NCBI GenBank assembly: GCA_021781955.1
Contig: JAJXVV010000001.1
Span: forward strand, 95,519 to 159,518
Reading direction: 5' to 3'
Length of the DNA: 64,000 nucleotides
Source of the DNA: a bacterium
GTDB taxonomy: Bacteria > Patescibacteriota > Minisyncoccia > Phycocordibacterales > UBA2100
Made by a program: the position numbers and the translations under genes. This document shows positions 1 through 28,428 of this stretch, one piece after another. The first letter of the stretch is position 1. Each line of letters starts with the position of its first letter. Below the pieces are notes generated by a model, which searched no databases, was not told the DNA's origin, and worked only from the letters and a program-made list of their open reading frames with translations.

Positions 1-797
1 CGCAGGTCATCGGCAGCGCAGGCGGTCTCGCCGGGCTCGGGCAATCGAACGGCGGGCCCTCGTACCTCGCCGCCATCGCGCAGCAATCATCGTCCGGTCT
101 CAGCAACGTCGTCGCGAATGCCGTGCTGCAAAACCTCAATGGCTTGCTGCAGAGCGAGAACCAGTTCCTGAACTCGATCAGCAGCATCGCCTCCTCGCTC
201 CAGCAGAGCGAAGGGTCGCTGCGCAGCGCCGAGAGCCAATGCTGGACCCAGATAATCGCGCAGGCGTGCTCGAGCCAGCTCTCGGCCAATAACACCTGCA
301 CCGCCTCGAGCAGCGTCACGCTCAAGGTCGCCACTTCGACCGCGTTCTCCGATGCGGTCATCAACTCGCAGATAGCCCCGGCCGCAGCGGCCGCAACGAC
401 CTCGATGGCGCAATCGCAGGCGGGACTGCAGTACATAAACGACCTCGCTCAAGCCATGGCCTCCGGCAATATGAGCTCGCAGAACATTGCCTCGGCGCTG
501 GCCGATCAGCTTGTCGCCTCCTCTTCTGAAGCGCAATATGCCCAGACGGGCGTCCCGGTCGCGGGCGGGGGTATCGTACACTCCCAAAACCAGGTGAGGA
601 CGGCGCAATCCCAGCAGAGCGCGGTATCCGATCAGATGCAGACGCTCCTATCGAACACCGCCAACACGTGGGGCGGTCTCGGTACCGACGGCTCGAGCAA
701 CATCCCGTGGGACGGCACGACGAACCCCGGCAACGGCTGGTGCAACACGAGCAACCCCGCGACCATCACCGCATGGCAGCAGAAGTGGAAACAATAG
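1..797 (+). CDS. Secreted Ser/Ala/Gln-rich protein, 5'-partial; reading frame open from window start; first gene of the T4SS-like operon
   Basis: Frame 3 open from nt 3 to stop TAG 795-797; low-complexity S/A/Q/N-rich sequence with Cys pairs; stop 2 nt before next ATG (800), so translationally coupled. Confidence 0.5.
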   Translation, partial: QVIGSAGGLAGLGQSNGGPSYLAAIAQQSSSGLSNVVANAVLQNLNGLLQSENQFLNSISSIASSLQQSEGSLRSAESQCWTQIIAQACSSQLSANNTCTASSSVTLKVATSTAFSDAVINSQIAPAAAAATTSMAQSQAGLQYINDLAQAMASGNMSSQNIASALADQLVASSSEAQYAQTGVPVAGGGIVHSQNQVRTAQSQQSAVSDQMQTLLSNTANTWGGLGTDGSSNIPWDGTTNPGNGWCNTSNPATITAWQQKWKQ

Positions 798-799
798 TT

Positions 800-3328
800 A
801 TGAGTTATTTTTCATTAAAAAAGGGGCTGTTGATGCTCGTGTTTGTCTTGAGTGCGGCCGCAATGCTACCGACATTCGCTTCGGCGGACACGCTTACGAC
901 TACCGACCTGCAGAAATTCTGCATTCTCGGACAAGACGTAAATGGTTGTAATTATATTATGTTCAACGATCAGGGTCAGCAGTGTTTTATGCCGGGCGAT
1001 AACACTCCTGGCCCTTCCGCAACGAACGTTGCGGACGCAAACACTTTGTATGCTCAAGGCTGTACTCATACCTTGAAGGGAGAAGTAGCAAAACGACAGC
1101 TGTCTTCATGCTACGACGGCTCAATTCTCTTGAGCGGCTGGGAATGTATTTGGTACGACATTGTCGCCAGCGTAGCCGCGCTCTTTATCTCTATTGCAGC
1201 ATGGTTGCTTGCGCTCGCCGGCTTCCTCTTCAACTGGCTCATGGACAACACCGTGATCTTGTTCGCCACTTCGATATATGGCAAAGCGGGGCCGGCGGTA
1301 GAATCCGCCTGGGCCGCATTCCGCGACATCGCCAACATCCTCATCATTGGCATCTTCACTTTCATCGCGATATCCATCATTCTCGGCCTAGAAGAATTCG
1401 GACAGAAAAAGCTCATCGCCCGCGTGCTTATCGTCGCGGTACTCATCAACTTCAGCCTCCTGTTCTCCAAAATGGCAATCGATGCGTCCAATTACCTTTC
1501 ATTGCAAATCTATTCCGCGAGCACGGGGCGTAGCGCCAATGATGCGCTCAACGACGTGAACGGCAACAACACCGTCGGCCAGAGCGGCGTCAATCCGTTC
1601 AACGGGTATGCCGATTCCGGCATCGCGGGCGCGTTCGTCGGGATTATGGGCGTGACCGGTATCACCGATGCGACACGAGCGCTTGTTATTCTCGCGGAAG
1701 AGCGAAACGGCGTCGGTGTGATGTTCGTGCACGGCCTACTCACCGCAGTGCTCTTCCTCGGTGCGGCTCTCGTGCTTTTGTACGGTTCGTTCTTGCTCAT
1801 CTCGCGCGCGATCATCCTCATTTTCTTGCTCGCCACCTCCTCAGTAGCGTTCGCCTCATACCTTATTCCCAAATGGGGGCACAGCAAGTTGGGCTGGGAC
1901 ACATGGACCCGATCGTTCATTTGGGCCGCGACGCTCGGCCCCATCCTTCTCCTGTTGCTCTGGATGACGCTCGACGTCGCCTACGCCATGCGCAGCAAAG
2001 TAGGTACCTTGGGCGACCTCACCACGAATCCCACGAACGGTGCCGACATGAGCGCGCTCTTCGTGTACCTCATTACGCTTGGTCTTCTGTTCATATCGTT
2101 CCGTGTCGCGAGCATGGCGGCAAACAAGGTCAGCGGATTCGACTTCGCCGCGATGGCGACGGTATTGCCGCTCACGCTCGGCTCCCGCATGGCCGGCTTC
2201 GCACTGCGCCAAACCGCTGGCTGGGCCGGGTACGGGTACCAAAAGAGTCAGACCGCTCAGGCGCAATCTGACCGTGACAGAGCGATGCGTGCCAGGATGC
2301 AAGAACAAGCTGCCCTTAATCGAGGCGATGCGCGGTACGCCAAGAAATTTGGTGACCTCGCTGCTGGATACGAGAAACGCGCAGCGGGCCGCCTGAAGAA
2401 CGCCGCCCGTGGTGGCGCTATCGCGAGCAGCAAGTTCAACCTCATGAATACCGGGGCCGCACAACAAGCAATGAAGGCGGCGGGCGTCTCCGGGTTTGCG
2501 ACAGGGGCGAGCTCAAAGGGAGCGAAGAGCTATGCTGACCGCGTCAAAGCTGATGCTGACGCGATCGAAAAGCAAACTCGCGCTGCGGCCGCCGGGGTTA
2601 ATGAAGGTGATATTCGTAAACAAACAGAGAGCAAAGTGCGCGAAGAGCGTGAACGTGCCCGGAAAGAGGCGGACGCGCGACGGGATGATGCGAAGAATCA
2701 GGTCGACGCTATCCGCAATGCGGCGGAACAAGAAAAAGAAGGCCTGAAAGACGGCATCCAGAAATTGAGTGAAGACCTCAAGGCAGCGCAGTCCGCGCCG
2801 AACGCGGCTGAGGCAAGACGCGCGAACGAACTAAGAGACGCGGCAGATCGCAACGCAGGGGCCAATGAGATCATGCGAATAAAAGCTCGGCACGAAAGTG
2901 AGATGTACCAAGAGAAAGCGAAGATCGAGCAGGTAAAGAAGAACATCGAAGAAGAACAGCGACGCATCCAACCCGATCTGGCCGCCATAGACGCCAAGTA
3001 TGCCTCTAGTTTGAAGAAGGCGACGGATGCGCTCGACGATCTCGACAGCCAAGTCAAAAGATTCAGTAAAGATTCGGCCGAATCGAAAGAACTCATAAAG
3101 CAGGCCGGTGACGCATCGATCAACGCGGCTCGGCAGACCGTCCAGAATATCGCCTCAGGCGTAAGGCATGGTGTTTTGCGAAATCCGATGGAAAGGGAGC
3201 TCGTCGCGAAGGAAGTTCGAGGTCGGTATAAGTCGAGTGCCGAAAAATCGAGCGTTCTGAAGACAATCGAAGAGGCGACTAAGGCCACAGAAAAGCCTGC
3301 CGCTCCGGCAGCTGAACAGGGAAAATAG
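800..3328 (+). CDS. VirB6/TrbL-like polytopic membrane protein with long C-terminal charged coiled-coil extension
   Basis: N-terminal signal peptide MSYFSLKKGLLMLVFVLSAAAMLPTFASA; Cys-rich periplasmic segment; at least 6 predicted TM helices (residues ~110-520); C-terminal ~330 aa rich in A/E/K/R/Q heptad-like repeats; position directly upstream of PrgI-like and VirB4 genes. Confidence 0.55.
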   Translation: MSYFSLKKGLLMLVFVLSAAAMLPTFASADTLTTTDLQKFCILGQDVNGCNYIMFNDQGQQCFMPGDNTPGPSATNVADANTLYAQGCTHTLKGEVAKRQLSSCYDGSILLSGWECIWYDIVASVAALFISIAAWLLALAGFLFNWLMDNTVILFATSIYGKAGPAVESAWAAFRDIANILIIGIFTFIAISIILGLEEFGQKKLIARVLIVAVLINFSLLFSKMAIDASNYLSLQIYSASTGRSANDALNDVNGNNTVGQSGVNPFNGYADSGIAGAFVGIMGVTGITDATRALVILAEERNGVGVMFVHGLLTAVLFLGAALVLLYGSFLLISRAIILIFLLATSSVAFASYLIPKWGHSKLGWDTWTRSFIWAATLGPILLLLLWMTLDVAYAMRSKVGTLGDLTTNPTNGADMSALFVYLITLGLLFISFRVASMAANKVSGFDFAAMATVLPLTLGSRMAGFALRQTAGWAGYGYQKSQTAQAQSDRDRAMRARMQEQAALNRGDARYAKKFGDLAAGYEKRAAGRLKNAARGGAIASSKFNLMNTGAAQQAMKAAGVSGFATGASSKGAKSYADRVKADADAIEKQTRAAAAGVNEGDIRKQTESKVREERERARKEADARRDDAKNQVDAIRNAAEQEKEGLKDGIQKLSEDLKAAQSAPNAAEARRANELRDAADRNAGANEIMRIKARHESEMYQEKAKIEQVKKNIEEEQRRIQPDLAAIDAKYASSLKKATDALDDLDSQVKRFSKDSAESKELIKQAGDASINAARQTVQNIASGVRHGVLRNPMERELVAKEVRGRYKSSAEKSSVLKTIEEATKATEKPAAPAAEQGK

Positions 3329-3329: not shown

Positions 3330-3878
3330 ATGGGACCGCAAGAACAGAGCGTTGACCAGCAATTAGCGGAGCAGTTCAAGGGGCTGCCGCCGGTGGTGCA
3401 GAACGCCATCACATCCGCCGACGTGCAGAAACACCTGCGCGACCTCGCGAATACCCACAAGCTCCACCTCGATCAATGGCAATTGCTCGAGAACGAGGTC
3501 ATGCTGACCTTGCTCGGCATCCAACCCATCGAGAACCTCGAACAAAACATCAAGAACGAGGTCGGCGTGCCTGCGGAAGACGCCAAGGCGCTTGCCGAGG
3601 ACATCTCCACAATAGTCTTCGAGCCGATCCGCGAAGAACTCGAGCGCGCGCTCAACAATCCCGACGCGAAGGCTGCGGCGGAAAGCGATGTCGAGGCCGC
3701 GCGGACGCAGGCGCTCGCCGCAGAACGCGCGGCGGCGGTCGCGCCGGCGACGCCGCCGCCTCCGCCGCCCGAGCAGAAAGCCGAACGCGCGCAGATCTCG
3801 CAGGCATACGCGTCGGGGGAGAGCTCGACCGCGCGCAAGAACATCCACGACGACCCCTATCGCGAGACGCCGCAGTGA
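3330..3878 (+). CDS. Hypothetical soluble protein with Pro/Ala-rich C-terminus (T4SS operon member)
   Basis: ORF starts 1 nt after upstream stop; no TM segments; PPPPPP tract; no recognisable family. Confidence 0.45.
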   Translation: MGPQEQSVDQQLAEQFKGLPPVVQNAITSADVQKHLRDLANTHKLHLDQWQLLENEVMLTLLGIQPIENLEQNIKNEVGVPAEDAKALAEDISTIVFEPIREELERALNNPDAKAAAESDVEAARTQALAAERAAAVAPATPPPPPPEQKAERAQISQAYASGESSTARKNIHDDPYRETPQ

Positions 3879-3901
3879 GTGGACGCTGATATAATAGGCG
3901 C

Positions 3902-4402
3902 ATGCAGTTCCAGGTGCCGCAGTTCATTGAGGTCGAGGACAAAATCTTCGGCCCGCTCACGTTCAAGCAGTTTATCTACATCGGCGGCGGCTTGGGCGCG
4001 AGCTATTTGCTCTGGCGCCTATTGCCCGTCTATCTCGCAAGCCCCTTGATTGCGATCATCGTCGGATTCGCGGCAGGGCTCGCGTTCTTCCAGTTCAACG
4101 GCCGTCCGCTCATTATCGCGGTCGAGCACGCTTTTTTCTTCTTCATGCACGGCAAGCTCTACCTCTGGGACAACACGCGCAAGGTGAAACGGCTTCCGGA
4201 AATGATCAAAGCTTCGCCGCTCGCCTCGAGCGTATACGTGCCGCACCTCTCGGAGAGCCGCCTCCACGAGCTCGCGTGGAGCCTCGACATCAAGGAACGT
4301 ATCGCGGCCGGGGTCGCCGGCGAGGACGAGAAGCGGCTAGCGCGCACGCAAGATCGCCTCGTCGAGCCGATGCGCACCGCGCGCGAAGCGCTCGGGCACT
4401 GA
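3902..4402 (+). CDS. PrgI/VirB3-like small two-TM membrane protein
   Basis: N-terminus MQFQVPQFIEVEDKIFGPLTFKQFIYIGGG followed by two hydrophobic helices; this motif and its position immediately 5' of VirB4 are typical of Gram-positive-type T4SS PrgI/VirB3-like proteins (from memory of the family, not searched). Confidence 0.5.
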   Translation: MQFQVPQFIEVEDKIFGPLTFKQFIYIGGGLGASYLLWRLLPVYLASPLIAIIVGFAAGLAFFQFNGRPLIIAVEHAFFFFMHGKLYLWDNTRKVKRLPEMIKASPLASSVYVPHLSESRLHELAWSLDIKERIAAGVAGEDEKRLARTQDRLVEPMRTAREALGH

Positions 4403-4412: not shown

Positions 4413-5075
4413 ATGCCCCCTGCCCAAAACACCGCGCGCGCCTCGAGTCGTTCCACCCAAGACTTTTTGCCGGTCTCGGAAGTGCGCGACGGCATCGTGG
4501 TGCTCAAAGACGGCGGCCTGCGGGCGATACTGCTCGCCTCATCGCTCAACTTCGCCCTCAAAAGCGAGGATGAGCAGACCGCGTTCATCGTACAGTTCCA
4601 GAACTTCCTCAATTCGCTCGACTTCTCCTGCCAGATATTCGTGCAGTCTCGCATGCTCGACATACGCCCCTATGTTGCCACGCTCGAGGTCGCGTACAAG
4701 AACCAGCTCGATGACCTCATGCGCACCCAAATACGCGAATATATCGAGTTCGTGAAAAGCTTCACGGAAGCTGCCAATATCATGACCAAGAATTTCTTCG
4801 TGGTCGTTCCATACTCGCCGGCTCTCGCTTCCGCGCAAAAAGGGCCGCTCTCGCTCTTGCCGTTCGGCGGTAAACCGCAGAATCCCGAGGACGCGAACCG
4901 CACGTTCGAAGAACAGACTTCCCAGCTCGAGCAGCGCATCTCTATCGTGCAGCAAGGCCTGGTGCGCACCGGCGTGCGCACCGTGCAGCTCGGTACTGAA
5001 GAGGCGATCGAACTGCTCTACAAAATGTTCAATCCCGGCGAGGAGGGGAAACCGATGCCGCTCGATAGTCAGTAG
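4413..5075 (+). CDS. VirB4/TrbE N-terminal domain encoded as a separate ORF
   Basis: N-terminus FLPVSEVRDGIVVLKDGGLRAILLASSLNFALKSEDEQTAFIVQFQNFLNSL resembles the conserved start of Gram-positive VirB4/TraE-family ATPases; 220 aa + 634 aa downstream ORF equals normal VirB4 length; different reading frame from the downstream ORF. Confidence 0.5.
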   Translation: MPPAQNTARASSRSTQDFLPVSEVRDGIVVLKDGGLRAILLASSLNFALKSEDEQTAFIVQFQNFLNSLDFSCQIFVQSRMLDIRPYVATLEVAYKNQLDDLMRTQIREYIEFVKSFTEAANIMTKNFFVVVPYSPALASAQKGPLSLLPFGGKPQNPEDANRTFEEQTSQLEQRISIVQQGLVRTGVRTVQLGTEEAIELLYKMFNPGEEGKPMPLDSQ

Positions 5076-5157
5076 GCGGGGACATCTCGCACCTGCCGCG
5101 CGGAAAAACACGATACAATGTGAGGACGTACCGGACACTGCGTACGGCACTTTACGT

Positions 5158-7062
5158 ATGGCGCTCAGCGATTTCCTTCCGTTCGGCAAGAAAACAGACG
5201 CGAACCCGCCGATGCTGCCCGTGCTGCCCGAAGAGATATACAAGTCGGGCGTGCTCGATCTGCAAGACGTCATCGCGCCGCACGCGCTGAAAGTCAACCC
5301 GCGCGAGCTCGACTTGGGCGAGCGTATCGCCCGCACCTTTTTCGTCATTTCCTACCCGCGATTCCTCACCACCGGATGGTTCGCGCCCATCATCAACATG
5401 GACAAGATCATCGACATATCTATTTTCGTCCACCCGATGGATACCAACGAGATGCTCCGCAAGTTCCAGAAGAAGGTCGCCGAGGTGCAGAGCCAGATCT
5501 CGCAGCGCGAGCAGAAGGGGATGGTGCGCGATCCGATGCTCGACACCGCCTACCAAGATCTCGAACAGCTGCGCGACAACCTCCAGCAAGCGCAGGAACG
5601 CATGTTCGACGTGGGACTCTACCTCACGATCTACGGCAACACGCGGGAGGAAATCGACAAAGTAGAGACCGAGGTGCGTTCCATTCTCGAATCCCGCCTC
5701 GTTTACATCCGCCCCGCGCTCTTCCAGCAAGAGCAGGGCTTCCGCTCGGTCTTGCCGCTCGGGAACGATGAGCTCGATGTGCACACGAAACTCAATTCCG
5801 CGCCGCTCTCCTCCATTTTCCCGTTCATATCCTTCGACCTCACCTCTGATCGCGGCATCCTCTACGGCATCAACCGCCACAATTCCTCGCTCATCCTCTT
5901 CGATCGATTCTCGCTTGAGAACTACAACTCTGTGACCTTCGCTAAGTCAGGCGCCGGCAAAAGCTACACGACGAAACTCGAGATCCTTCGCTCACTCATG
6001 TTCGACACCGAGGTCATCGTCATAGACCCCGAACGCGAATACGAATACTTGGCGGAGATGGTCGGCGGCCGCTACTTCAACATCTCGCTTTCTTCGGAGC
6101 ACCATATCAACCCCTTCGACCTTCCCATTCCGCGCGAGGACGAGAGCCCCTCGGACGTGCTTCGCAACAACATCATCACGCTTGTCGGACTCTTCCGCAT
6201 CATGCTCGGAGGCCTCACACCCGAAGAAGACGCCATCATCGACAAGGCCATCACGGAAACATACGCGCTCAAGGACATCACCGCCGACGTCAACTTCGCT
6301 GCGGTCGAGCCCCCGCTCCTTTCCGACTTCGAGCTCGTGCTCTCTGGCATGGAGGGGAGCGAATCGCTCGTGCAGCGACTCTCGAAGTACACCAAGGGCA
6401 CGTGGTCGGGCTTCATGAACCGGCCGACGAATGTGGACATGAACAAGAAGCTCGTCGTTTTCTCGGTGCGCGATATGGAAGACGACCTCAAGCCGGTCGC
6501 CATGTACATCATCACGCACCACATCTGGAACGCGGTGCGCAAAGAGCTGCGCAAGCGACTCCTCGTCATCGACGAGGCGTGGTGGATGATGCGTTCCGAG
6601 GACACAGCATCGTTCCTCTTCGGAATCGCGAAACGCGGCCGCAAGTACTACCTCGGGATATCGACGATAACGCAGGACGTGTCCGACTTCCTCAATTCAC
6701 CGTACGGCGTGCCGATGATCACCAACTCATCGATCCAGATGCTCTTGCGCCAGTCGCCGACCTCGGTCGACCTCGTGCAATCCACCTTCAAGCTCTCCGA
6801 CGAAGAGAAGTACCTGCTCCTTGAGAGCGATGTGGGGGAGGGGATCTTCTTCGCGGGACTAAAGCATGTCGCCATCAAGGTCATCGCTTCGTACACCGAG
6901 GATCAGATCATCACGTCCGATCCGTCCCAGATCCTCGCCATCAAAAAAGCGAAGCAGGAACTGGCGAATGCCGAGCCGGAAAGCGTTCCAACGGCTGCTG
7001 CGCACTCCGCTCCGGGGGAGGACACCCAGCCGATCGGCGCTTCACCTTTTGCCTCTGTATGA
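5158..7062 (+). CDS. virB4: VirB4/TrbE/CagE-family T4SS ATPase (C-terminal ATPase part)
   Basis: Walker A FAKSGAGKSYTTK, Walker B LLVIDEAWWMM, downstream GISTITQDVSDF motif typical of VirB4/TraC/TrsE ATPases. Confidence 0.8.
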   Translation: MALSDFLPFGKKTDANPPMLPVLPEEIYKSGVLDLQDVIAPHALKVNPRELDLGERIARTFFVISYPRFLTTGWFAPIINMDKIIDISIFVHPMDTNEMLRKFQKKVAEVQSQISQREQKGMVRDPMLDTAYQDLEQLRDNLQQAQERMFDVGLYLTIYGNTREEIDKVETEVRSILESRLVYIRPALFQQEQGFRSVLPLGNDELDVHTKLNSAPLSSIFPFISFDLTSDRGILYGINRHNSSLILFDRFSLENYNSVTFAKSGAGKSYTTKLEILRSLMFDTEVIVIDPEREYEYLAEMVGGRYFNISLSSEHHINPFDLPIPREDESPSDVLRNNIITLVGLFRIMLGGLTPEEDAIIDKAITETYALKDITADVNFAAVEPPLLSDFELVLSGMEGSESLVQRLSKYTKGTWSGFMNRPTNVDMNKKLVVFSVRDMEDDLKPVAMYIITHHIWNAVRKELRKRLLVIDEAWWMMRSEDTASFLFGIAKRGRKYYLGISTITQDVSDFLNSPYGVPMITNSSIQMLLRQSPTSVDLVQSTFKLSDEEKYLLLESDVGEGIFFAGLKHVAIKVIASYTEDQIITSDPSQILAIKKAKQELANAEPESVPTAAAHSAPGEDTQPIGASPFASV

Positions 7063-8120
7063 GATACCCGTTCACGTTCGCCTTGCTCACGCTTTTCCTT
7101 TCTGCCGCGCCGACGCTCGCGAGCGCGCAACTCCTCACGGCGAGCGGGTTCGGCACGAATCTCTCCATCGCGCTTTCACCGCAGAGCCCGCGCCCAGGAC
7201 AGCAGGTGCTCCTCACCGCGCAAGGCGTCGGCATCGACCTCCAGGGCAGTTCCATCGTCTGGCACGCGGGCGGAAACATCATCGCGCAGGGAGTCGGCGC
7301 GAACACCGCAACCCTGACGGCGGGCGCGCTTGGAAGCGTGGTTCCGATCGAGGTCGACGTCGCGACGCAAGGCGGCGGCACCTACTCCGCGCAGGCGACC
7401 ATCGCACCGACAACGCTCGACCTCCTGGTGAGCTCGGACTCATACGTGCCGCCCTTCTTCCGTGGCCGCGCATTTCCGAGCGCGGGCACCGATCTCCTCG
7501 TTCAGGCCGTCCCTACGTTCGTGCGCGCTGATGGCAGCACCATCCCGGTATCATCGATCACGTTCACCTGGAAAAAGGACGGCCAAGTGCTCGGCGCGCT
7601 CTCGGGAGCCGGGCGATCGCTGGCGGTCATACCGATCGAACACGTGTACGGCAACAATACCGTGACCGTGACCGCGGTCTCATCGGACGGTTCGCTTTCG
7701 GGCGAAGCGACGGTGTCGCTCCCGACCACAAACCCGGTACTCGACCTCTACGAGGATCATCCGCTGTACGGCATCCTGTTCAATAACGCGCTCTCGCCCC
7801 TCTCGACCATCGGCGAGAACGAAGTGACGTTCGCTGCCATACCGTACTTCATGCAGGCACAGAGCACTGCGGACCGGCAGCTCGCCTACCGCTGGAGCGT
7901 CAACGGCAACACCGTTGACGTGAGCCCTTCGGATCCGAACGAGATAACCGTGAACGCGAACAATTCCAGCGGACAAGCGGCCATCGCGCTCGACCTCACG
8001 CATTCTGGAAACTTCTACCTCGAACCGAGCGGCACCTGGAACATCACCCTCTCAGCGAACGGCTCCGGCAGCGGCTCCGGGGGCGGCAGCACGACCAGCC
8101 CATTCGCCAGTCCGCACTGA
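7059..8120 (+). CDS. Secreted beta-rich protein with repeated domains (T4SS operon member)
   Basis: ATGA overlap with the virB4 stop; signal peptide MRYPFTFALLTLFLSAAPTLASA; repeated ~90 aa T/S/V-rich beta-type segments; GSGSGSGGGS tail. Confidence 0.5.
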   Translation: MRYPFTFALLTLFLSAAPTLASAQLLTASGFGTNLSIALSPQSPRPGQQVLLTAQGVGIDLQGSSIVWHAGGNIIAQGVGANTATLTAGALGSVVPIEVDVATQGGGTYSAQATIAPTTLDLLVSSDSYVPPFFRGRAFPSAGTDLLVQAVPTFVRADGSTIPVSSITFTWKKDGQVLGALSGAGRSLAVIPIEHVYGNNTVTVTAVSSDGSLSGEATVSLPTTNPVLDLYEDHPLYGILFNNALSPLSTIGENEVTFAAIPYFMQAQSTADRQLAYRWSVNGNTVDVSPSDPNEITVNANNSSGQAAIALDLTHSGNFYLEPSGTWNITLSANGSGSGSGGGSTTSPFASPH

Positions 8121-8125
8121 ACACG

Positions 8126-9340
8126 ATGCGTATGAACGTGCAAAAATTCGTCCAGTACCTCCTGATCGCGATCCTTGTGATCGTCCTCGGCGCGCTCGCC
8201 GGTTGGTACCTGTTCTTGCACGCGCAGAGCATCAAGAACCAAGCGCTGAGCACCGATCTCGGGCTTGGCGCACCAGCCCCCTTTGGAACGACGCAGGGCA
8301 CGAGCGGCGGATTCAGCACCATGAGCGCGAGCACAAGCACGGGAACGGGCGGGAGCGCACAGCCGCCGCAATTATGGCACGTGACGACCGCGCCGATCGC
8401 TGGTTTTGCGTTCGCCTCATCAACCGACGGCATGGTCGTGCGCTATGTCGAGCGGGCCACCGGCTACGTGTTCGAGGCGAACCTCACGACCGGCACCATC
8501 GTCCGCCTCACCAATACGCTCTCTCCAAAAATATATGAGGCGCAGTTCGCCCCTCCCGACCGGGTCGCGGAACGCTCCATCGACAATGGGGGGAACATAA
8601 CGACGTTCGCGGGGCTCTACGGCGTCGGGACATCGTCGGCGCTCACCGGCACCTCGTTCGCCGCCAACATCGAAGCGCTCGCGGCCGACCCATCATCGAA
8701 CAACGTCTTCTCGCTCATCGACAAGGGAAGCGGGGTCGTCGGCGTCATTTCCGGGTGGGACGGATCGAAGCCGAAGCAAGTGTTCAGCTCCGGCGTACCT
8801 GGCTGGCGCGCATGGTGGCTCCCCGACGGACGTATCGTACTCGAGCAAAACGCGGCCGATTCCGTGCTCGGCTACAGCTACGTGCTCAGGAACGGGGCGC
8901 AAACACCGCTCATCGATCCGCTTCCCGGACTCACCGCGATCCCTCAATCCGGCTCGGCCGCGCTTCTCTACAGCACCTCGCAGAACGGCGCGCTCTCGCT
9001 CTATGTTCGGCCTGCGGGGAGCAGCACGCCGCTCCAACTCCCGCTCGCGACGCTCGCCGATAAGTGCGCGTGGGCGCCGAACAGCCCGACCGTCTACTGC
9101 GGCGCACCGCAGACGACGCCTGGAGCGGACTTCCTCGACGCATGGTACCGTGGCGAGGCGCACAGCGCCGATGCCATGTGGAGTATCGACACATCCTCCG
9201 GAAAAGCCGCCCAAATATTCGCACCGAGCTCAAGCGCGGCGCTCGACGTCGACGAACCGTCGGTCGACGGCAGCGGTTCGTACTTCGGCTTCATCAACGC
9301 ATCCGACCTTTCGCTCTGGGTCCTGCGGCTCGGCCGATAA
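8126..9340 (+). CDS. N-terminally membrane-anchored periplasmic/extracellular protein, possibly beta-propeller-like (T4SS operon member)
   Basis: Single N-terminal TM segment (QYLLIAILVIVLGALAGWYLFL); G/T/S-rich linker; ~330 aa with TolB/WD-like repetitive character; 5 nt after upstream stop. Confidence 0.5.
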   Translation: MRMNVQKFVQYLLIAILVIVLGALAGWYLFLHAQSIKNQALSTDLGLGAPAPFGTTQGTSGGFSTMSASTSTGTGGSAQPPQLWHVTTAPIAGFAFASSTDGMVVRYVERATGYVFEANLTTGTIVRLTNTLSPKIYEAQFAPPDRVAERSIDNGGNITTFAGLYGVGTSSALTGTSFAANIEALAADPSSNNVFSLIDKGSGVVGVISGWDGSKPKQVFSSGVPGWRAWWLPDGRIVLEQNAADSVLGYSYVLRNGAQTPLIDPLPGLTAIPQSGSAALLYSTSQNGALSLYVRPAGSSTPLQLPLATLADKCAWAPNSPTVYCGAPQTTPGADFLDAWYRGEAHSADAMWSIDTSSGKAAQIFAPSSSAALDVDEPSVDGSGSYFGFINASDLSLWVLRLGR

Positions 9341-9346: not shown

Positions 9347-9784
9347 ATGCGGAACTTCTCTCGCGTGAACACCGTACTCGGTCTCGTACTGCTAAGCGCG
9401 ACGCTCGCGCCAATGCTCGCGCTCGCGCAGCAGAACTGCACGACAGCAAGCGGTTTCGTGCAGCTCGCATGCACGCCCTCTGGCGCACTAAGCAACCTCT
9501 ATAGTTCGCAAGGGGACCTGAGCTCGTTCATCAACTCGCTCTTCAAATTCGCCATCGCGATCGGCGCCATAGGCGCCGTACTGCGGCTCGTGTACGCCGG
9601 ATATCTCTACATGGGTTCGGACCTCTGGAACAAGAAAAGCCAAGCAAAACAGATCATGAGCGACGTCACGATTGGCCTTCTGCTCCTCTTGGGCATCTGG
9701 CTCATTCTCTACCAGATCAACCCTGACATCGTCAGCCTGAGCGCGCTCAAGACCATCACGCCTCCGCAAACACAGTCGCAGTAA
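9347..9784 (+). CDS. TrbC/VirB2-like T4SS pilin
   Basis: Long signal peptide, mature N-terminus with 2 Cys, then two hydrophobic helices separated by a short charged loop (GSDLWNKKSQAKQ); the classic VirB2/TrbC architecture; ~145 aa. Confidence 0.5.
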   Translation: MRNFSRVNTVLGLVLLSATLAPMLALAQQNCTTASGFVQLACTPSGALSNLYSSQGDLSSFINSLFKFAIAIGAIGAVLRLVYAGYLYMGSDLWNKKSQAKQIMSDVTIGLLLLLGIWLILYQINPDIVSLSALKTITPPQTQSQ

Positions 9785-9810: not shown

Positions 9811-10290
9811 TTAGTCCGCAGCGTACTTGATGACGACCCGCCGGTTGCGGCCTTCGCCCTGCGATTCGGTCTTGATGTGAGGCGCGTCGTGAAGCGTCGT
9901 ATGGACGATGAGGCGCTCGTACGCGGTCATGGGGGAGAGCTCGACGTCGTACTGGAACGAGCGCGCCCGCTCCGCCATCATGAATGCTTTGGTCTGTAGT
10001 TCTTTGATCTGCTTCGTCCGATAGTCGTTGACGTCAACGAGGAACAGCGCCCCGCCATGCTTCTCGTCCGCATCCGCTCCTTCGGGAGGCGGGTTGCGTC
10101 GCTCATATATCTTTTTCACGAGCAAGTCTATCGCATGAATGGTGTCGCCGTGGCCTCCGATGAGGGTCCGCGCGTCATCGGTCCGTATCGAGTATATCTC
10201 CTGACCAGCTAACACCTCCTTCTCGACGGAGGAGTACGCCATGCCGCTGGAATCGAGCAGTTCTTTGATGATAGCCTCAGGAGAATTCAT
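9811..10290 (-). CDS. khpB: Jag/KhpB R3H-domain RNA-binding protein
   Basis: R3H signature HGDTIHAIDLL and KH-like N-terminus; located downstream of yidC as in the conserved rpmH-rnpA-yidC-jag operon. Confidence 0.8.
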   Translation of the reverse strand: MNSPEAIIKELLDSSGMAYSSVEKEVLAGQEIYSIRTDDARTLIGGHGDTIHAIDLLVKKIYERRNPPPEGADADEKHGGALFLVDVNDYRTKQIKELQTKAFMMAERARSFQYDVELSPMTAYERLIVHTTLHDAPHIKTESQGEGRNRRVVIKYAAD

Positions 10291-10341
10291 GGAGTGACTC
10301 TACCACAGAGCGTCCCAGGTTCCAAAAAACGCGCAGAACGC

Positions 10342-11079
10342 TTACTGTTTCGGCCGAAAACGCCTCCCTGCGAGGAGTTCTTGCCCGATCATGAAAACAT
10401 TGCTCGTGACCCAATAGAGCGGCGCGGCCGCGGCAACGGTATAGCCGATGACTCCGATCATCGCGGGCAGGACGTAGCGAGCCTGAAGATCGAAGCTCCT
10501 CGCCATGTCCCCCGAGAGCGAGGCCTCCACCGGGGTCGATTCCGGAACTTTCTCGCGCGGCCCCATGGAGAGCCTCGTGTAGGTGAACTGCGTCGCCGCC
10601 GCAAGGAGCGCAAGGAGCGCGCTGCGCGCGCTCATGTCGATGAGCCCCAAGAAATGCATGTTTATAGACGCTGGCACGTGAACGAACGAATAGAGCAGAT
10701 TTGCGTGCACGTCGGGAAACCCACTCCGGTAAAAGACCCAGTAGAGCGCGATCAGAATGGGGAACTGTATGAGCACGAGGCCGAAGCTCGCGAACGGGTG
10801 TATGCCGCGCTCTTTATAGAGCGCAAAAACCGCCTGGCTTTGCTCCGGCGAGTTCTTCTTGTATTTTTTCTTCACTTCCTCGACCTCCGGCGCGATCTTC
10901 TTCATCGCCAATTGCGCTTCGACTGCCCGACGTGAAAGCGGGTAGAGAATGACGCGCACAACGACAGTGAGCGCTACCACCGCGAGCCCCATATCATGAT
11001 AGGGGAGGATGCCGACCAAAAAAACGAGCCCGTTGTAGAGCGGGTTGTAGATAAGCGTCGAAAACAAGGCCGAAAGCAT
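10342..11079 (-). CDS. yidC: YidC/SpoIIIJ membrane protein insertase (short Gram-positive-like form)
   Basis: Multi-TM 245 aa protein with motifs LVLIQFPILIALYWVF and YPLSRRAVEAQ; conserved operon context. Confidence 0.85.
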   Translation of the reverse strand: MLSALFSTLIYNPLYNGLVFLVGILPYHDMGLAVVALTVVVRVILYPLSRRAVEAQLAMKKIAPEVEEVKKKYKKNSPEQSQAVFALYKERGIHPFASFGLVLIQFPILIALYWVFYRSGFPDVHANLLYSFVHVPASINMHFLGLIDMSARSALLALLAAATQFTYTRLSMGPREKVPESTPVEASLSGDMARSFDLQARYVLPAMIGVIGYTVAAAAPLYWVTSNVFMIGQELLAGRRFRPKQ

Positions 11080-11085
11080 GCCGTG

Positions 11086-11439
11086 TTATTGTAGCGCGCT
11101 GTCACCCTTGGCGCCAACGACGCCGGACCGCTCGGCAAGCGACCGCAGATCTTCCTTGAGCGCCGCGAACGACGCATCAGCGGCGCTTCGCTTCGCATGG
11201 AAGATGAGTGCGATCGGCGCGCGGCTATTCTGCAGGAGCGGAGCGAGCACTGCGCGGGCTCGCCTCTTCACGAGATTACGCGAAACCGCTTTTGCGGAGG
11301 CCTTTTTTGATACAACGCATGCCCACTTAATGCCGTCCCCACATCGGGCGACCGAGAGAGAGAAGTGCGCACCATACACCCGTCTCAGCGGTTGCAGTGA
11401 CTTGAAATCATCGCTTGAGAGGCGTTGGGAATGTGCCAT
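11086..11439 (-). CDS. rnpA: Ribonuclease P protein component
   Basis: 117 aa basic protein, motif VSRNLVKRRARAVL; immediately downstream of rpmH. Confidence 0.8.
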   Translation of the reverse strand: MAHSQRLSSDDFKSLQPLRRVYGAHFSLSVARCGDGIKWACVVSKKASAKAVSRNLVKRRARAVLAPLLQNSRAPIALIFHAKRSAADASFAALKEDLRSLAERSGVVGAKGDSALQ

Positions 11440-11441
11440 CG

Positions 11442-11576
11442 CTACACCGAGAGTTTCGCGCGGCCCTTGCGGCGGCGGCGCTGGAGCACGCGGCGCCCGG
11501 TGGGGGAAGCGCTACGCTTCAAAAAACCGTGCGTGCGGGCTCGCTTGCGTTTCTTTGGCTGCCACGTGCGTTTCAT
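11442..11576 (-). CDS. rpmH: 50S ribosomal protein L34
   Basis: Hand-translated minus-strand ORF absent from the track (44 aa): [44 protein letters not shown], canonical L34. Confidence 0.85.
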
Positions 11577-11705
11577 GCGCACAACTATACCTATTTTCCG
11601 CTCAGGCACAAGAGCGACTAATGCTCGCCGCCAATCCCCACACTATCCACACCTTATACACTCACGCGGCATGCACTTCGAACACTTCCCTTGTATGGCG
11701 GCGCG

Positions 11706-11711
11706 CGTATA
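11706..11711 (+). promoter_or_regulatory. TATAAT -10 element upstream of dnaA; DnaA-box-like CTATCCACA at ~11643-11651
   Basis: Perfect TATAAT 32 nt upstream of the dnaA start; 8/9 match to TTATCCACA in the rpmH-dnaA spacer. Confidence 0.35.
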
Positions 11712-11742
11712 ATGGGGAACTCCGTATGAATTTTCGCTCCGT

Positions 11743-13104
11743 ATGACGATGACGACGATGAGCAATAGAGAGTTGTGGCAGAACGCCCTCGTACAGATCG
11801 AGCTCGGCACTTCACAGGCTTCGTTCCGAACCTGGTTCAAGAACACCGACATCACGAGCCACAACGGCGGAACAGTGCAGATAGCCGTACCGTCGAAGAT
11901 CGTGAAGGAGTGGCTTATGGACAAACACCACAAGCTTATTTTGCGCGCGCTGCGCTCCCTCGACGACACTATCCGTACCGTCGAATACTCGGTCCACCGC
12001 ACCGCCATACCCACTGAGCGCAAACCGGTCCGCGAACCCATTCCCGAGAACGCGTCCCTCGACCTCGGTTCGCTCTATATAGATAAACGGGATAATCTGA
12101 ACCCGCGCTACACATTCGACACTTTCGTCGTCGGCCCTTTTAATGAGCTCGCGCATGCGGCGGCACAGGCGGTCCTTGAACGTCCCGGCCTTATGTACAA
12201 TCCGCTTTTCATTTATGGAGCGACGGGACGAGGCAAAACACACCTCATTCAGGCGATCGGCAACTACTTCAAGAAGACCCGCACCAACAAGAAGGTGCTC
12301 TACGTGACCTCCGAGCGGTTTTCCGTAGACTACATCAATGCGGTGCGCGCCGGACACGCAAACAACTTCAAGGATCAGTACCGCCAGTACGACGTGCTCA
12401 TCATGGATGATGTCCAATTCATCGCGAACACGGAAAAGACCCAGGAAGAACTCTTTCACCTCTTCAATGTGATGCGCGATAACAACAAACAGATCGTGTT
12501 CTCCTCCGATAAACACCCCGCGCTTCTTCCGGGGCTCGAGGAACGCCTTAAGGGACGCTTCGCCTCTGGTATGATCGCCGAAATACCGGAACCGGACCTT
12601 GAATCGCGCCTCTCGATCATTCGGGCGAAACTTGAAAGCCACGGCTTCTCGCTCCCGGAGGACATAATCACGTACATTGCCGAAAACTTACGCGGCAACA
12701 TCAGGGAGATCGAGGGCGTGCTTAATATGATCGTCTGTAAATCACAACTCAAAGGCCGCGGGGTCTCGCACGCCGACGTCCGCACCCTTATCAAACACAA
12801 CATCAAGCCGAACAGGGGGGTTTCGATTGATGAGGTAGTGCGTCGTATCGCGCAATACTACGAGATCGCAGAAAAGAGCATCTACGAAAAAACGAGAAAA
12901 AAGGAGGTGGTGAAGCCGCGCCAAATCATCATGTATATCCTGCGAGAGGAATTTAATGTGTCGTACCCGACGATCGGCGAGAAACTCGGAGGCAGAGACC
13001 ACACAACCGTCATCCACTCATGTGAAAAAATAAAAGAGGAAGTGAAATCAAACCCGTCGCTCGAACAAGAGCTTGATTATATCCGCACCATTATCCATGC
13101 ATAA
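11743..13104 (+). CDS. dnaA: Chromosomal replication initiator DnaA
   Basis: AAA+ motifs GATGRGKTHLIQAIGNYF, box VII, C-terminal DNA-binding helix; 453 aa. Confidence 0.95.
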   Translation: MTMTTMSNRELWQNALVQIELGTSQASFRTWFKNTDITSHNGGTVQIAVPSKIVKEWLMDKHHKLILRALRSLDDTIRTVEYSVHRTAIPTERKPVREPIPENASLDLGSLYIDKRDNLNPRYTFDTFVVGPFNELAHAAAQAVLERPGLMYNPLFIYGATGRGKTHLIQAIGNYFKKTRTNKKVLYVTSERFSVDYINAVRAGHANNFKDQYRQYDVLIMDDVQFIANTEKTQEELFHLFNVMRDNNKQIVFSSDKHPALLPGLEERLKGRFASGMIAEIPEPDLESRLSIIRAKLESHGFSLPEDIITYIAENLRGNIREIEGVLNMIVCKSQLKGRGVSHADVRTLIKHNIKPNRGVSIDEVVRRIAQYYEIAEKSIYEKTRKKEVVKPRQIIMYILREEFNVSYPTIGEKLGGRDHTTVIHSCEKIKEEVKSNPSLEQELDYIRTIIHA

Positions 13105-13325
13105 GATGTGGATACTCACTTAGTAGAATGTGAGTATGTGTATCAATAAAACAACCGAACCAGCAAAAAAATCACTGTCCACACACTCGCCAATACTTCA
13201 TCAAGAACATTTCCACACACACCACCCGCAAAAAAAACATCATTCTTCAACCTAAAATCAACTTCTCCACACTATCAACACCCCTAATAGTAATAATAGG
13301 ATTTTTAATAAAAAAGATATCCACT
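13105..13325. promoter_or_regulatory. Candidate oriC: AT-rich dnaA-dnaN spacer with a DnaA-box cluster and DNA unwinding element
   Basis: Local AT-rich island in a ~62% GC window; five motifs matching TTATCCACA at 7-8 of 9 positions in one orientation (TGTGGATAC 13107-13115 on the opposite strand, CTGTCCACA, ATTTCCACA, TTCTCCACA, ATATCCACT); AT tract aatagtaataataggatttttaataaaaaag at 13285-13315. Confidence 0.55.
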
Positions 13326-14423
13326 ATGAAGATGAAGATCCGGGTTGAAAAACTCCTTGGTGCGGTACTCCTCGCGGAGCGAGTGGTGGGCAAGAAGGAA
13401 TCACTTCCAATACTTTCCTGTATTCTCATCGAGGCACGTAAAAATAATGTTCGCGTGAAAGCGACGAATCTTGAGTCCGGTTTAGAGATCGTTATACCGG
13501 GAGATGTTGGTGTGGATGGTGTGGTGGCGGTACCGGCCGCTATCTTATCGCAAACACTCAGGTCTATTTCTGGGGAGATGGTCGAGTGCTCGGTTGAAGA
13601 GGGGAATCTCGCGATAAACACAAAAAAAACAAAAACCCTCATAAAGGCGGTACCTCACGACGAGTTCCCATTACTCCTAAAAACAACAGAAGAAGGTGGT
13701 GTTAGTATTCCCAAACAAGAGCTAATCAAAATCATACAGTCGGTTTCCTACGCGGCATCCCCATCCATGGTTCGGCCAGAGCTCGGCAGCATCTTCATTT
13801 CCATGAATGCGAGCTCGATGCTCTCGGTCGCGACCGATTCGTTCCGGTTGGCTGAAAAGGCCATTCCCATGCATGGGAAGGGTTCGGTCGAACTTTTGAT
13901 ACCACTTAAACATGCCCAGGAGCTTGCGCGTATACTCGAATATGTCGTTGCGGAGACGGTATCCATGTTCGCAGGGGATTCACAGGTGGTGGTGCGCGCC
14001 GATGGTGTGTCATACGTCTCCCGTGTTATTGAGGGTAATTTCCCAAACTACAAAGAGATCCTACCGAAGAGTTTCATGACGGAAGCCACACTCCTTAAGG
14101 GTGAATTCGCGGACATGCTGCGTAAGGCGCGGGTGTTCGCTGGGTCCGATCAACACGTCGGGCTTCATGTGTACCCAAAACGGAAGGTTTTTAGCGCGAC
14201 CGCACACAATACTGAGGTTGGTGAGATGTCGGACGTGATCGATGCCGCGCTCACGGGTGAGGATATCGATATTAATTTCCACATAGGCTATCTTGGCGAC
14301 TGTCTCGCTTCGATCGAGGCTGACTCCATCACCCTCGGCTTCTCCGGCGCGGGGAAACCTCTCGTGATGCGAGGCGCGTCGGACGCATCGTTCACCTACC
14401 TGGTGATGCCGCTCAATCGGTAA
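13326..14423 (+). CDS. dnaN: DNA polymerase III beta sliding clamp
   Basis: 365 aa; three-domain clamp-like sequence; canonical position after dnaA. Confidence 0.9.
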   Translation: MKMKIRVEKLLGAVLLAERVVGKKESLPILSCILIEARKNNVRVKATNLESGLEIVIPGDVGVDGVVAVPAAILSQTLRSISGEMVECSVEEGNLAINTKKTKTLIKAVPHDEFPLLLKTTEEGGVSIPKQELIKIIQSVSYAASPSMVRPELGSIFISMNASSMLSVATDSFRLAEKAIPMHGKGSVELLIPLKHAQELARILEYVVAETVSMFAGDSQVVVRADGVSYVSRVIEGNFPNYKEILPKSFMTEATLLKGEFADMLRKARVFAGSDQHVGLHVYPKRKVFSATAHNTEVGEMSDVIDAALTGEDIDINFHIGYLGDCLASIEADSITLGFSGAGKPLVMRGASDASFTYLVMPLNR

Positions 14424-25126: not shown

Positions 25127-25759
25127 ATGCTCTACCTCTTGCTCGGCACTGACAAAACGAAAGCACGCGAAGCGGCGCGCAAGCTCGGCAAGGGCGCGGA
25201 AGAGTTGCGCATCAACGATGCGAGCGGCGTCCAGGACCTCGAGGCCGCCTTGCGGGGCGGCGGACTTTTTGGCAGCAAGCATCTCGTGCTCTTGGAAGGC
25301 ATCTTAGCCAACGAAGACATGCGCGTCTTTCTCGAGCGCTCGATCGACGTGCTCGGCGATTCGCCGGATACCTTTTGTGTGCTTGAGGACAAGCTGGACG
25401 CGGCGACCCGGAAGCGTTTCGAAAAATACACGCAGAAGACCGAGGTATTCGATCTACCGATGAACAAAGCGGCGCACGACGATAATTTTTTCGCGCTCGC
25501 GAACGCGCTGCGCGCGGGGTCGAAGAAAGACCTCTGGCTCGTCCTCGAGCGGGAGCTCTTGGGCGGCAAGGCGCCGGAAATGCTCCACGGCTCGCTCTTT
25601 TGGGCGGCAAAACAGATGGTGCTGAAGCCTCGGAAGGCGGCTGATAGGGAGCGCGGCAAGCGCCTCGTGGAGGCGCTTGCCGCGCTCCCGCACGAAGCCC
25701 GCCGCCGGGGCGAGGAGCTGGATTATGCACTGGAGCGGTTTGCGCTCTCCGGAATATGA
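25127..25759 (+). CDS. Possible DNA polymerase III delta subunit-like protein (HolA N-terminal-like), short
   Basis: MLYLLLGTD... resembles the HolA N-terminus (YLLLG); immediately follows polA; only 210 aa, so the assignment is weak. Confidence 0.3.
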   Translation: MLYLLLGTDKTKAREAARKLGKGAEELRINDASGVQDLEAALRGGGLFGSKHLVLLEGILANEDMRVFLERSIDVLGDSPDTFCVLEDKLDAATRKRFEKYTQKTEVFDLPMNKAAHDDNFFALANALRAGSKKDLWLVLERELLGGKAPEMLHGSLFWAAKQMVLKPRKAADRERGKRLVEALAALPHEARRRGEELDYALERFALSGI

Positions 25760-25772
25760 TACTATTTTCTGC

Positions 25773-27125
25773 ATGAACTACCTGCGTTTTGTCGCCGCGT
25801 TTATCATCGCGTCGATTACTTTAGCAGTGCCACTGTCGGCGTATGCGGTCGGAGTCGCGGCCGACGCGTACTGTAAATCGACGTGCACCAACCTAATCCA
25901 ACAAGCGCAGGCGACCGGGAACGCGGCGGTGGTTCAACAAGCAATCGCAAAGTGTCAGGCGACCGTCTGTACCGACGTCACGAGCAGCCTTACGACGACC
26001 GGCACCTGCACCTATCCGGCGATGGAGTGTCAAGGGAAGAGCTCAAGTGGCGGCGCCGGCAACAGCGGCGGATTGCTTGACTCCTCCAGTCTCAGCGGAC
26101 TCGGCACGGTCTTGGGCATGCTTCTCGGCAAACTCATGCAAGGGCAGCCGGGAGGCGGGAGCGGGTCAGCAGCGGGCTCGATGCCGTACACGACCGCCGG
26201 CACGACCGGTTGCACCGGTTCGTACTTCCAGACGTCCGATATTTCGCAACTCTCCAACCCCTGCGCGATGTATTCGCCCTCGACGACCAGCAATTCTCCA
26301 GCCAGCACTCTCGCGACGGGCACCACCGGGAGCACCTGTGACGCGCTGAGCCAGCTCCTTGGCACCTGCAATTCGTCGAACGCCACGAGCACTGGATCGC
26401 CGGTCACCATCACCAACAACAACGTCAACACGAATACCAACGCGACCCCGAGCACGTCGCTCACGACGGTCCAAGGGACGACGACCGCGAGCACGACGTC
26501 CGGTCTCGGCACGCCTGCGGTCCTCGGGCCGCAGAGCCAGTCGGGAAACATCCTCTTCACCACCAACGGAGCGACCATCGTCGGCAGCTTGCTCAACCTG
26601 CCCAATAACTCGACCATCGCCGGCTTTTATGGCGGCGATTCGTTCAGCAACGGCAAGCCGCAGGGCATCGCGGCGTCGTTGTGTCAGTCGCGTCCGTGGG
26701 CCAACAGTTTCGTCTCCGCGCTCATTCCTTCGAGCTTCTTCGACAACCTCTGCTCCTCCAACGGCTACCAGGTAGGCGCGCCGCCCGCGCCCCAGGTCCA
26801 ACTCCAGCAAACGCCCGCGAGTACGCCGAAACCGGCCGCTCCTGCGGCGGCGACCACGGCCGCGACCTCGTCCGTGCCAGCCGTTGTCCAGGTTTGGGCC
26901 GTTCCCGCCTCCGTGCCGCTCGACACGCGTACCGAAGTGTATTGGGCGACCCAGGGCGTGACCCAGTGCAATGTGGCCTCGCCTGACGGCCAGTTCAACG
27001 AGAACACGCTCTCCGGCGGAGCAGCCACGGTGCCGCTCACAGGCGCGACCACCTTCACCATCTCGTGCACCGATTCTTCCGGCAACCCCATCACCAACTA
27101 CGTCACGGTCAACATCTCTTCGTAG
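25773..27125 (+). CDS. Secreted Thr/Ser/Gly-rich low-complexity protein with C-terminal 2-Cys Ig-like domain
   Basis: Signal peptide MNYLRFVAAFIIASITLAVPLSAYA; Cys-pair modules; C-terminal ~80 aa domain (WATQGVTQCNV...TISCTDSSG...VTVNISS) resembling the C-termini of the 42944..45022 protein. Confidence 0.6.
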   Translation: MNYLRFVAAFIIASITLAVPLSAYAVGVAADAYCKSTCTNLIQQAQATGNAAVVQQAIAKCQATVCTDVTSSLTTTGTCTYPAMECQGKSSSGGAGNSGGLLDSSSLSGLGTVLGMLLGKLMQGQPGGGSGSAAGSMPYTTAGTTGCTGSYFQTSDISQLSNPCAMYSPSTTSNSPASTLATGTTGSTCDALSQLLGTCNSSNATSTGSPVTITNNNVNTNTNATPSTSLTTVQGTTTASTTSGLGTPAVLGPQSQSGNILFTTNGATIVGSLLNLPNNSTIAGFYGGDSFSNGKPQGIAASLCQSRPWANSFVSALIPSSFFDNLCSSNGYQVGAPPAPQVQLQQTPASTPKPAAPAAATTAATSSVPAVVQVWAVPASVPLDTRTEVYWATQGVTQCNVASPDGQFNENTLSGGAATVPLTGATTFTISCTDSSGNPITNYVTVNISS

Positions 27126-27174
27126 CGCGCTCGGCGCGTGAAAGAAGCGACTCAAGCCGGTGTATCACCGGCAT

Positions 27175-28404: not shown

Positions 28405-28428
28405 CGTCTCGGCCCCCTTCGTTGCAGT

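Follow-up and report, generated by a model that had tools for sequence, protein, structure and literature searches.

Two conserved polypeptides together cover one VirB4 in an origin-proximal type IV secretion system-like locus of Candidatus Kaiserbacteria

Here, we present an analysis of a gene pair related to the VirB4 ATPase of type IV secretion systems (T4SS) in a 64,000-nt stretch of DNA (hereafter, the window; positions 95,519 to 159,518 of contig JAJXVV010000001.1, assembly GCA_021781955.1). All features of the window described below lie on the plus strand. The upstream open reading frame (ORF), ORF1, spans 4413..5075 (220 aa; coordinate mod 3 = 0), ends with the stop codon TAG at 5073-5075, and encodes a TrsD/TraD-like protein that also carries the label "TraC-like" (PF26593). 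The downstream ORF2 spans 5158..7062 (634 aa; mod 3 = 1) and encodes a VirB4-family ATPase without the first N-terminal subdomain; its Walker A (AKSGAGKS, aa 262-269) and Walker B (LLVIDE, aa 468-473) motifs, read from the translation and alignment, are encoded at 5941..5964 and 6559..6576, respectively. The two ORFs are separated by an intercistronic spacer of 82 nt (5076..5157). The gene directly upstream of ORF1 (3902..4402), which ends 10 nt before it and is also found in relatives, encodes a PrgI-family (VirB3-like) membrane protein (PF12666 PrgI, E 1.9e-9, above the cut-off). A first-pass annotation of the window had described ORF1 and ORF2 as a VirB4 encoded in two different frames, and had offered two alternatives, i.e., that VirB4 is genuinely split and its N-domain forms a subunit of its own, or that a recent inactivating frameshift or an assembly error is present. 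Its ORF coordinates and lengths, the different frames and the 82-nt gap were all correct, as were the statements that the gap contains a stop codon, which is TGA at 5121-5123 in the frame of ORF1, and that the second ATG has no obvious Shine-Dalgarno (SD) sequence.

The similarity of ORF1 to the N-termini of VirB4 proteins, as proposed in that annotation, is real. ORF1 matches the NCBIfam models VirB4_plasma (E 2e-9) and NF041427 TrsD/TraD (E 7e-6), and its aa 22-131 correspond to positions 8-119 of the CD1110 VirB4 model (E 2e-5). Using hhalign, an ORF1-family profile aligned colinearly from end to end with TrsD of plasmid pSK41 (19-213 versus 33-217, E 2e-4). The label PF26593 is given in the precomputed annotation for an identical protein and for all close homologues, and has that source alone. 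A sequence search of the PDB with ORF1 returned no match; only the fold search succeeded. The AlphaFold2 model of ORF1, based on an alignment of 79 homologues, is a compact alpha/beta domain (pLDDT 89.3, pTM 0.78), and in a Foldseek search of the PDB, the top 14 hits were all R388 TrwK/VirB4 chains (prob 1.0, TMq 0.52-0.59), while the next hit had an E value of 0.3. The Foldseek output came without the aligned range in TrwK, and the N-terminal placement of ORF1 derives from the hidden Markov model coordinates and from the alignment to a natural fusion protein described below. Based on the model, ORF1 is predicted to fold like the beginning of the N-terminal domain of VirB4, i.e., a free-standing and independently folding unit of ~200 residues.

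ORF1 has at least 7999 homologues in the database. All of its 120 best matches (80-100% identity) have lengths of 217-240 aa. When the homologues are taken as cluster representatives, with identity falling to ~36%, stand-alone proteins of 146-443 aa make up 149 of the best 150. In three stand-alone TrsD-like proteins from other lineages within the candidate phyla radiation (CPR), P0153, P0171 and P0197, the conserved YNP end of the domain is followed by low-complexity C-terminal tails of 130-230 residues rich in Pro, Ala and Gln; a fused protein would have no room for such tails.

ORF2 accounts for the remainder of VirB4. It passed the cut-off of NF045971 conju_CD1110, a model of monoderm VirB4 proteins (368.6 bits versus a cut-off of 325), with aa 28-572 corresponding to model positions 181-733, and scored well above the cut-off for PF19044 (85.5 versus 25.8 bits). 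It also matched PDB 4AG5, a structure of the VirB4 C-terminal domain (E 2e-41), its aa 113-553 align by sequence to TrwK residues 286-735, and both nucleotide-binding motifs are intact. ORF2 lacks a complete N-terminal domain and begins around CD1110 position 181, or TrwK residue ~175, and the missing part is ORF1. ORF2, then, is the second half of the N-terminal domain together with the RecA-like ATPase domain, and the CD1110 model is covered in two parts, one by each ORF.

Fused relatives show the same layout in one chain. In P0270 (797 aa), residues 8-210 correspond to ORF1 (40% identity) and residues 225-796 to ORF2 (55% identity), and a linker of 14 residues replaces the 11-aa tail of ORF1 and the 29-aa head of ORF2. 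Because 118 of the 120 best relatives of P0270 are also fused (775-807 aa, several of them named Candidatus Colwellbacteria), P0270 is not an artefact. Within this fused clade, P0289 (600 aa) and P0385 (601 aa), with 88% and 77% identity, are without the N-terminal PF26593 part, which could reflect secondary splits that arose independently or gene calls cut short. We also predicted the structure of ORF1 and ORF2 as one joined chain, using an alignment of natural fused homologues, and this model matched full-length TrwK (E 1e-28, TMq 0.61, TMt 0.65). Residues 228-251 of the model, just past the junction, have pLDDT values below 50. In R388 TrwK, the N-terminal domain comprises residues 15-400 (PMC9259494). 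The cut, at about TrwK residue 175, is therefore inside the canonical N-terminal domain and not at the boundary between the N-terminal and ATPase domains, contrary to the possibility raised in the first-pass annotation that the junction falls at a domain boundary. The cut falls in a short, variable and disordered linker. Altogether, the two conserved polypeptides together cover one VirB4, while sister lineages encode both pieces as one polypeptide.

The ORF2 frame is open upstream to 4783, with no start codon, and so a single indel just before 5073 could, on the window sequence alone, fuse the two ORFs. The window sequence alone could thus not exclude an indel, and comparative evidence was needed. 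The 136-nt junction is identical to that of the window in three independent assemblies (SRR13178628, SRR17201898 and GCA_027352215.1), and the exact ORF1 protein is present on 16 contigs. When one genome per GTDB species was scanned, 293 relatives were obtained; we retained 80 loci, most of which bear the label Candidatus Kaiserbacteria or Paceibacterota (individual loci are referred to by L numbers). Homologues of ORF1 and ORF2 are adjacent and co-oriented in 77 of the 80 loci and fused in none; of the other three, two are contigs that stop at ORF1, and in L068, virB4 is on the opposite strand. All three relative frames of the gene pair occur in the 77 loci (32/23/22), and the gap between the genes varies from 0 to 411 nt and is often 1-5 nt. 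The position of the ORF1 stop is conserved, and the ORF2 alignment begins at Met1 in nearly all loci. The impression in the first-pass annotation that both termini are natural holds, because they are conserved as termini in relatives (NPGEEGKPMP in the tail of ORF1; MAL.D...PVLPEEIY in the head of ORF2). The median ratios of nonsynonymous to synonymous substitutions (dN/dS) are 0.12 for ORF1 (285 pairs) and 0.07 for ORF2 (242 pairs), with synonymous sites near saturation, demonstrating that both genes are under strong purifying selection. We conclude that the split is ancient and conserved, and that it is the usual state among these ultra-small CPR bacteria.

Against this background, the idea that a recent inactivating frameshift or an assembly error broke a single virB4, leaving a pseudogene or an artefact, is effectively refuted and highly improbable. 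Such damage does exist among the relatives: in L018:1009-2771, virB4 itself is broken, with aa 1-110 and 118-629 in different frames. That break is a genuine frameshift or assembly error and stands in contrast to the conserved boundary between the trsD-like gene and virB4, for which the identical junction in three assemblies, the split in 77 species with three relative frames and variable gaps, the conserved termini, the low dN/dS values and the thousands of stand-alone homologues of ~220 aa all argue against recent damage. Of the two alternatives in the first-pass annotation, the genuine split thus stands and the frameshift or assembly error falls: ORF1 has its own predicted fold, ORF2 covers the rest, and the two-gene state is conserved and under selection in relatives, as the comparison of orthologous loci demonstrates.

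Another alternative is programmed recoding, in which ribosomal frameshifting or stop read-through would yield a full-length fused VirB4 from the two ORFs. In the window, ribosomes shifting by +1 close to the ORF1 end would reach ORF2 without encountering a stop, and in relatives such as L013, L039 and L040, the ORFs are in the same frame and parted by a single stop codon plus 3 nt. However, the relative frames 0, +1 and +2 are about equally frequent and the gaps span 0-411 nt; many spacers are filled with stops in all frames or hold another gene; there is no conserved slippery site; the spacer is not conserved as protein, while ORF2 conservation begins exactly at its ATG; and in L068 the genes are on opposite strands. 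Because frames and gaps vary, we rejected programmed frameshifting and read-through, which we hold to be very improbable.

The arrangement has precedents. pGO1 and pSK41 are staphylococcal conjugative plasmids with an MPF-FATA system of the pGO1 subclass, in which TrsD/TraD and TrsE/TraE are the counterparts of ORF1 and ORF2. In pSK41, the order is a VirB3-like, trsC-like gene (25492-25899), trsD (25886-26569, 227 aa) and traE (26584-28602, 672 aa), and the order in the window is the same. ORF1 likewise has the layout of TrsD, i.e., a stand-alone gene for ~200-230 aa between the genes for a VirB3-like protein and a VirB4 ATPase. The settings differ, in that the pSK41 genes are on a conjugative plasmid that also has a relaxase and a coupling protein, whereas the cluster in the window is chromosomal and beside dnaA. 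The same split is present on a Pontibacillus megaplasmid, where the genes share an 11-nt overlap. Moreover, TrsD has been reported as the most abundant T4SS component in Patescibacteria, with 2,272 homologues of which 1,664 are beside virB4, in T4SS clusters located near dnaA/dnaN/yidC, and a TrsD homologue is listed as essential in Ca. Southlakia epibionticum ML1 (PMC12102498, Microb Genom 2025). The window matches the Patescibacteria T4SS described there in VirB4, the TrsD homologue, PrgI/VirB3, the pilin and the near-dnaA site. Because the arrangement of TrsD with VirB4 has been published for Patescibacteria (PMC12102498) and the same order is found in pSK41, this feature of the window was already known, and the window is a further example of it; the author of the first-pass annotation was unaware of this arrangement.

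The same study describes TrsD as having an unassigned function and remote homology to the VirB4 N-terminus (PMC12102498). We cite the TrsD/VirB4 homology solely via this paper; the term "TrsD" does not occur in the text of Guglielmini 2014 (PMC4027160). The text of PMC12102498 contains no statement that the adjoining VirB4 lacks the TrsD segment and no mention of a fused TrsD-VirB4. Our small additions are therefore that the adjoining VirB4 is without the TrsD-equivalent segment and that fused forms exist in the phylum, as in the Colwellbacteria VirB4 (775-807 aa), which has the PF26593 and P-loop domains in a single polypeptide colinear with ORF1 plus ORF2. The only or best structural match of ORF1 alone and of the joined ORFs is R388 TrwK (PDB 7O41, 7O43, 8RTD), which differs in that it comes from a diderm system and is a single 823-aa chain, with a sequence identity of about 15-19%. 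VirB3-VirB4 fusion proteins occur in some conjugative systems, and none were found in Patescibacteria (PMC12102498). These fusions show that the module of VirB3, N-domain and ATPase tolerates fission as well as fusion at linkers; they go in the direction opposite to the fission in the window.

Based on these analyses, we consider it very probable that ORF1 and ORF2 are two real and separately translated genes, encoding a TrsD-like VirB4 N-terminal piece and the rest of VirB4. Several observations weigh against this conclusion. ORF1 scored only 26.1 bits against NF041427 TrsD/TraD and missed the curated cut-off of 200; a BLASTP comparison of ORF1 with pSK41 TrsD was not significant; and a Pfam-A scan of ORF1 assigned no family, using a local copy that may lack the PF26593 model. 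By sequence, ORF1 is thus only a remote homologue of TrsD/TraD. The joined model has a pTM of 0.59, so that the packing of the domains is without a confident prediction; any contact of ORF1 with ORF2 or PrgI is predicted only, by analogy to R388; and ORF2 sits behind an 82-nt spacer without an SD, promoter or terminator consensus.

The lack of a confident packing model would also fit an alternative in which ORF1 descends from the VirB4 N-terminus but now functions independently, e.g., as an adaptor, regulator or membrane tether, and is not a stoichiometric piece of VirB4. Along the same lines, stand-alone homologues often have long, disordered and lineage-specific C-terminal tails (in proteins of up to 300-443 aa), and TrsD homologues in Gracilibacteria are mostly not beside virB4 (PMC12102498). 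We regard this alternative as unlikely, however: the two genes are strictly adjacent, often with gaps of 1-5 nt in Kaiserbacteria; natural fusions exist in Colwellbacteria; the segment missing from ORF2 is exactly what ORF1 supplies; and the joined model superposes on full-length TrwK.

If ORF1 and ORF2 are the two pieces of one VirB4, as we favor, the two proteins would associate non-covalently to restore a VirB4-like protomer. In R388, VirB3 is wrapped round VirB4's N-terminal domain, and the interface of the VirB4 dimer is formed entirely by N-terminal domains (PMC9259494). By analogy, ORF1 would supply the surface that in R388 binds VirB3 and mediates VirB4 dimerization, and the counterpart of VirB3 would be the PrgI-like protein encoded just upstream. 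ORF1 probably docks onto the N-terminal region of ORF2 and links the ATPase to the PrgI-like membrane protein, while ORF2 would supply the hexamerizing ATPase motor.

A short motif, in which a hydrophobic stretch is followed by (P)FGKK, is found both in the variable loop of ORF1 and in the head at the N-terminus of ORF2. The copy in the ORF1 loop (LSLLPFGG, aa 146-153) is encoded at 4848-4871 and the copy in the ORF2 head (LSDFLPFGKK, aa 3-12) at 5164-5193. In relatives, a loose (P)FGKK-type motif is present in 64 of 78 ORF1 loops and 50 of 71 ORF2 heads, and it occurs only once in the fused Colwellbacteria protein. The shared motif might be a peptide for docking or for contact with the membrane, or it might stem from a duplication that arose when the genes split. 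As a separate observation on ORF2 homologues, virB4 of L027 (5400-9185) and of L028 (6690-10538) contains an intein (Intein_splicing plus a LAGLIDADG_3 homing endonuclease) inserted just after Walker A, equivalent to aa ~269 of ORF2 in the window, giving ORFs of 1261-1282 aa; virB4 of L068, whose pieces lie on the minus strand at 5240-4440 and 2720-1572, probably bears an intein as well.

With regard to the expression of ORF2, we found no SD motif before 5158. However, only 6 of the 57 long ORFs of the window have an SD motif; because SD motifs are scarce across the window, the missing SD is uninformative on the ORF2 start, and we rejected it as evidence against this start. A scan of the spacer for promoter and terminator consensus sequences found none, with counts equal to those in shuffled sequences. 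Folding of the spacer RNA gave no extra stability over shuffles (z = -0.43 and -1.24), the spacer contains no inverted repeat, and its 10-mers recur elsewhere in the window at two single sites only. An A-rich/TACAATG motif at 5104-5120, followed by the TGA at 5121-5123, occurs nowhere else in the 64 kb (expectation by chance, 0.09), and this central motif is also present in the spacers of L022, L030 and L037. Many starts in the window have a −10-like box (TATAAT, TACAAT, TATACT or TAGAAT) merely 5-10 nt upstream, e.g., at 3885-3901 and upstream of 11079, 16874, 45502 and 61765. This pattern suggests that mRNAs with no leader or a very short one may be common in this genome. We speculate that ORF2, like nearly all genes here, would be translated without an SD, with either the operon mRNA or an mRNA starting in the spacer as template.

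Three states of the intergenic spacer are found in relatives, i.e., 0-21 nt (46 loci), 70-98 nt (27 loci; the spacer of the window falls in this class) and 411 nt (3 loci). Spacers of 0-21 nt typically consist of the stop codon, 1-5 nt and the ATG. Spacers of 70-98 nt have, immediately before the virB4 ATG, 2-4 short tandem units that are specific to the species, and the 5′ arm is the reverse complement of these units; an ATG sits in the middle of the A-rich loop. The sequence of the arms varies by species, while their complementarity is kept (z down to −7.6). Among spacers of 60-140 nt, 25 of 28 have at least 10 long-range base pairs and 14 of 28 have z < −3. Examples of hairpin spacers are L061:1127-1202, L037:6646-6743, L056:6661-6757, L067:6655-6750 and L026:6649-6737, and about 20 further loci have them. 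The 411-nt spacers (L027:4989-5399, L032:6670-7080 and L035:5375-5785) have similar arms around a PF05635 23S_rRNA_IVP gene (hereafter, IVP gene).

Cassettes with inverted repeats of 22-42 nt are also present at other junctions of the T4SS operon, and IVP genes lie at operon junctions in L037 (4953-5324), L072 (5002-5358), L080 (4958-5326), L034 (5074-5445) and L069 (3604-3975 and 4556-4939). In total, we identified 22 IVP ORFs in 17 of the 81 sources, all co-oriented with the operon, and none in the window. The IVP proteins match PF05635 and are weakly bAvd-like. L037 has two near-identical 98-nt copies without an ORF. Mapped onto a neighbor-joining tree of the proteins, the presence of a long spacer requires 23 changes compared with 23.1 for shuffled tips; this lack of phylogenetic signal may partly reflect a poorly resolved tree. 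The cassettes resemble intervening sequence (IVS)-like or miniature inverted-repeat transposable element (MITE)-like elements, and the 70-98-nt spacers look like ORF-less derivatives of them. A more far-reaching proposal is that the spacer of the window is the decayed footprint of a family of cassettes bounded by inverted repeats, with one form of ~410-460 nt that has a PF05635 gene and one of 70-98 nt without an ORF; that the cassettes act as rRNA intervening sequences moved into mRNA; and that their stem is an RNase III site at which the transcript is cut between the trsD-like gene and virB4, uncoupling their expression. Taken together, we consider this proposal possible but doubtful. Because the spacer of the window has no hairpin or inverted repeat, the hairpin architecture of the relatives is not demonstrable there.

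The first gene of the cluster (668..3328) encodes a polytopic protein of 886 aa with many hydrophobic segments; it had no Pfam match and only a sub-threshold NCBIfam match. It occupies the place at which one would expect a VirB6-like channel protein; the cluster on the Pontibacillus plasmid has a large hypothetical protein in the equivalent position. The following gene (3330..3878, 182 aa) has no Pfam family, and the same gene is called in independent assemblies. Downstream of ORF2, two operon genes (7059..9340) encode proteins of 353 and 404 aa with N-terminal hydrophobic segments and no Pfam family, and relatives have genes for ~345 aa directly 3′ of virB4. The last gene of the cluster (9347..9784) encodes a T4SS pilin-like protein (PF18895 T4SS_pilin, E 2e-6, above the cut-off). 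It is followed, within 9811-14423, by jag (R3H), yidC, dnaA (11743-13104) and dnaN (13326-14423). The GC content is 0.50 in 12001-14000 compared with ~0.60 elsewhere in the window; this drop, together with dnaA and dnaN, indicates that the replication origin is probably located within the 9811-14423 region, in agreement with the location close to the origin that has been reported for Paceibacteria. An Rfam scan of the window identified six tRNAs and no match at the locus, and no relaxase or coupling-protein families were found among the 16 window ORFs scanned against Pfam, with the other ORFs of the 64-kb window left unscanned. Altogether, the cluster is a chromosomal, origin-proximal T4SS-like locus of Candidatus Kaiserbacteria (Patescibacteria/CPR, Paceibacteria).

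For annotation, our findings imply that the gene pair should be neither flagged as a pseudogene nor merged, and that the name given to ORF1 should be TrsD-like VirB4 N-terminal subunit. The hairpin and IVP cassettes at the operon junctions of relatives are the sole potentially new lead. With respect to the family, TrsD obtains a concrete assignment, namely to the first subdomain of the N-terminal domain of VirB4 in detached form, which is incremental on published work, and the interaction of TrsD, VirB4 and PrgI becomes directly testable.

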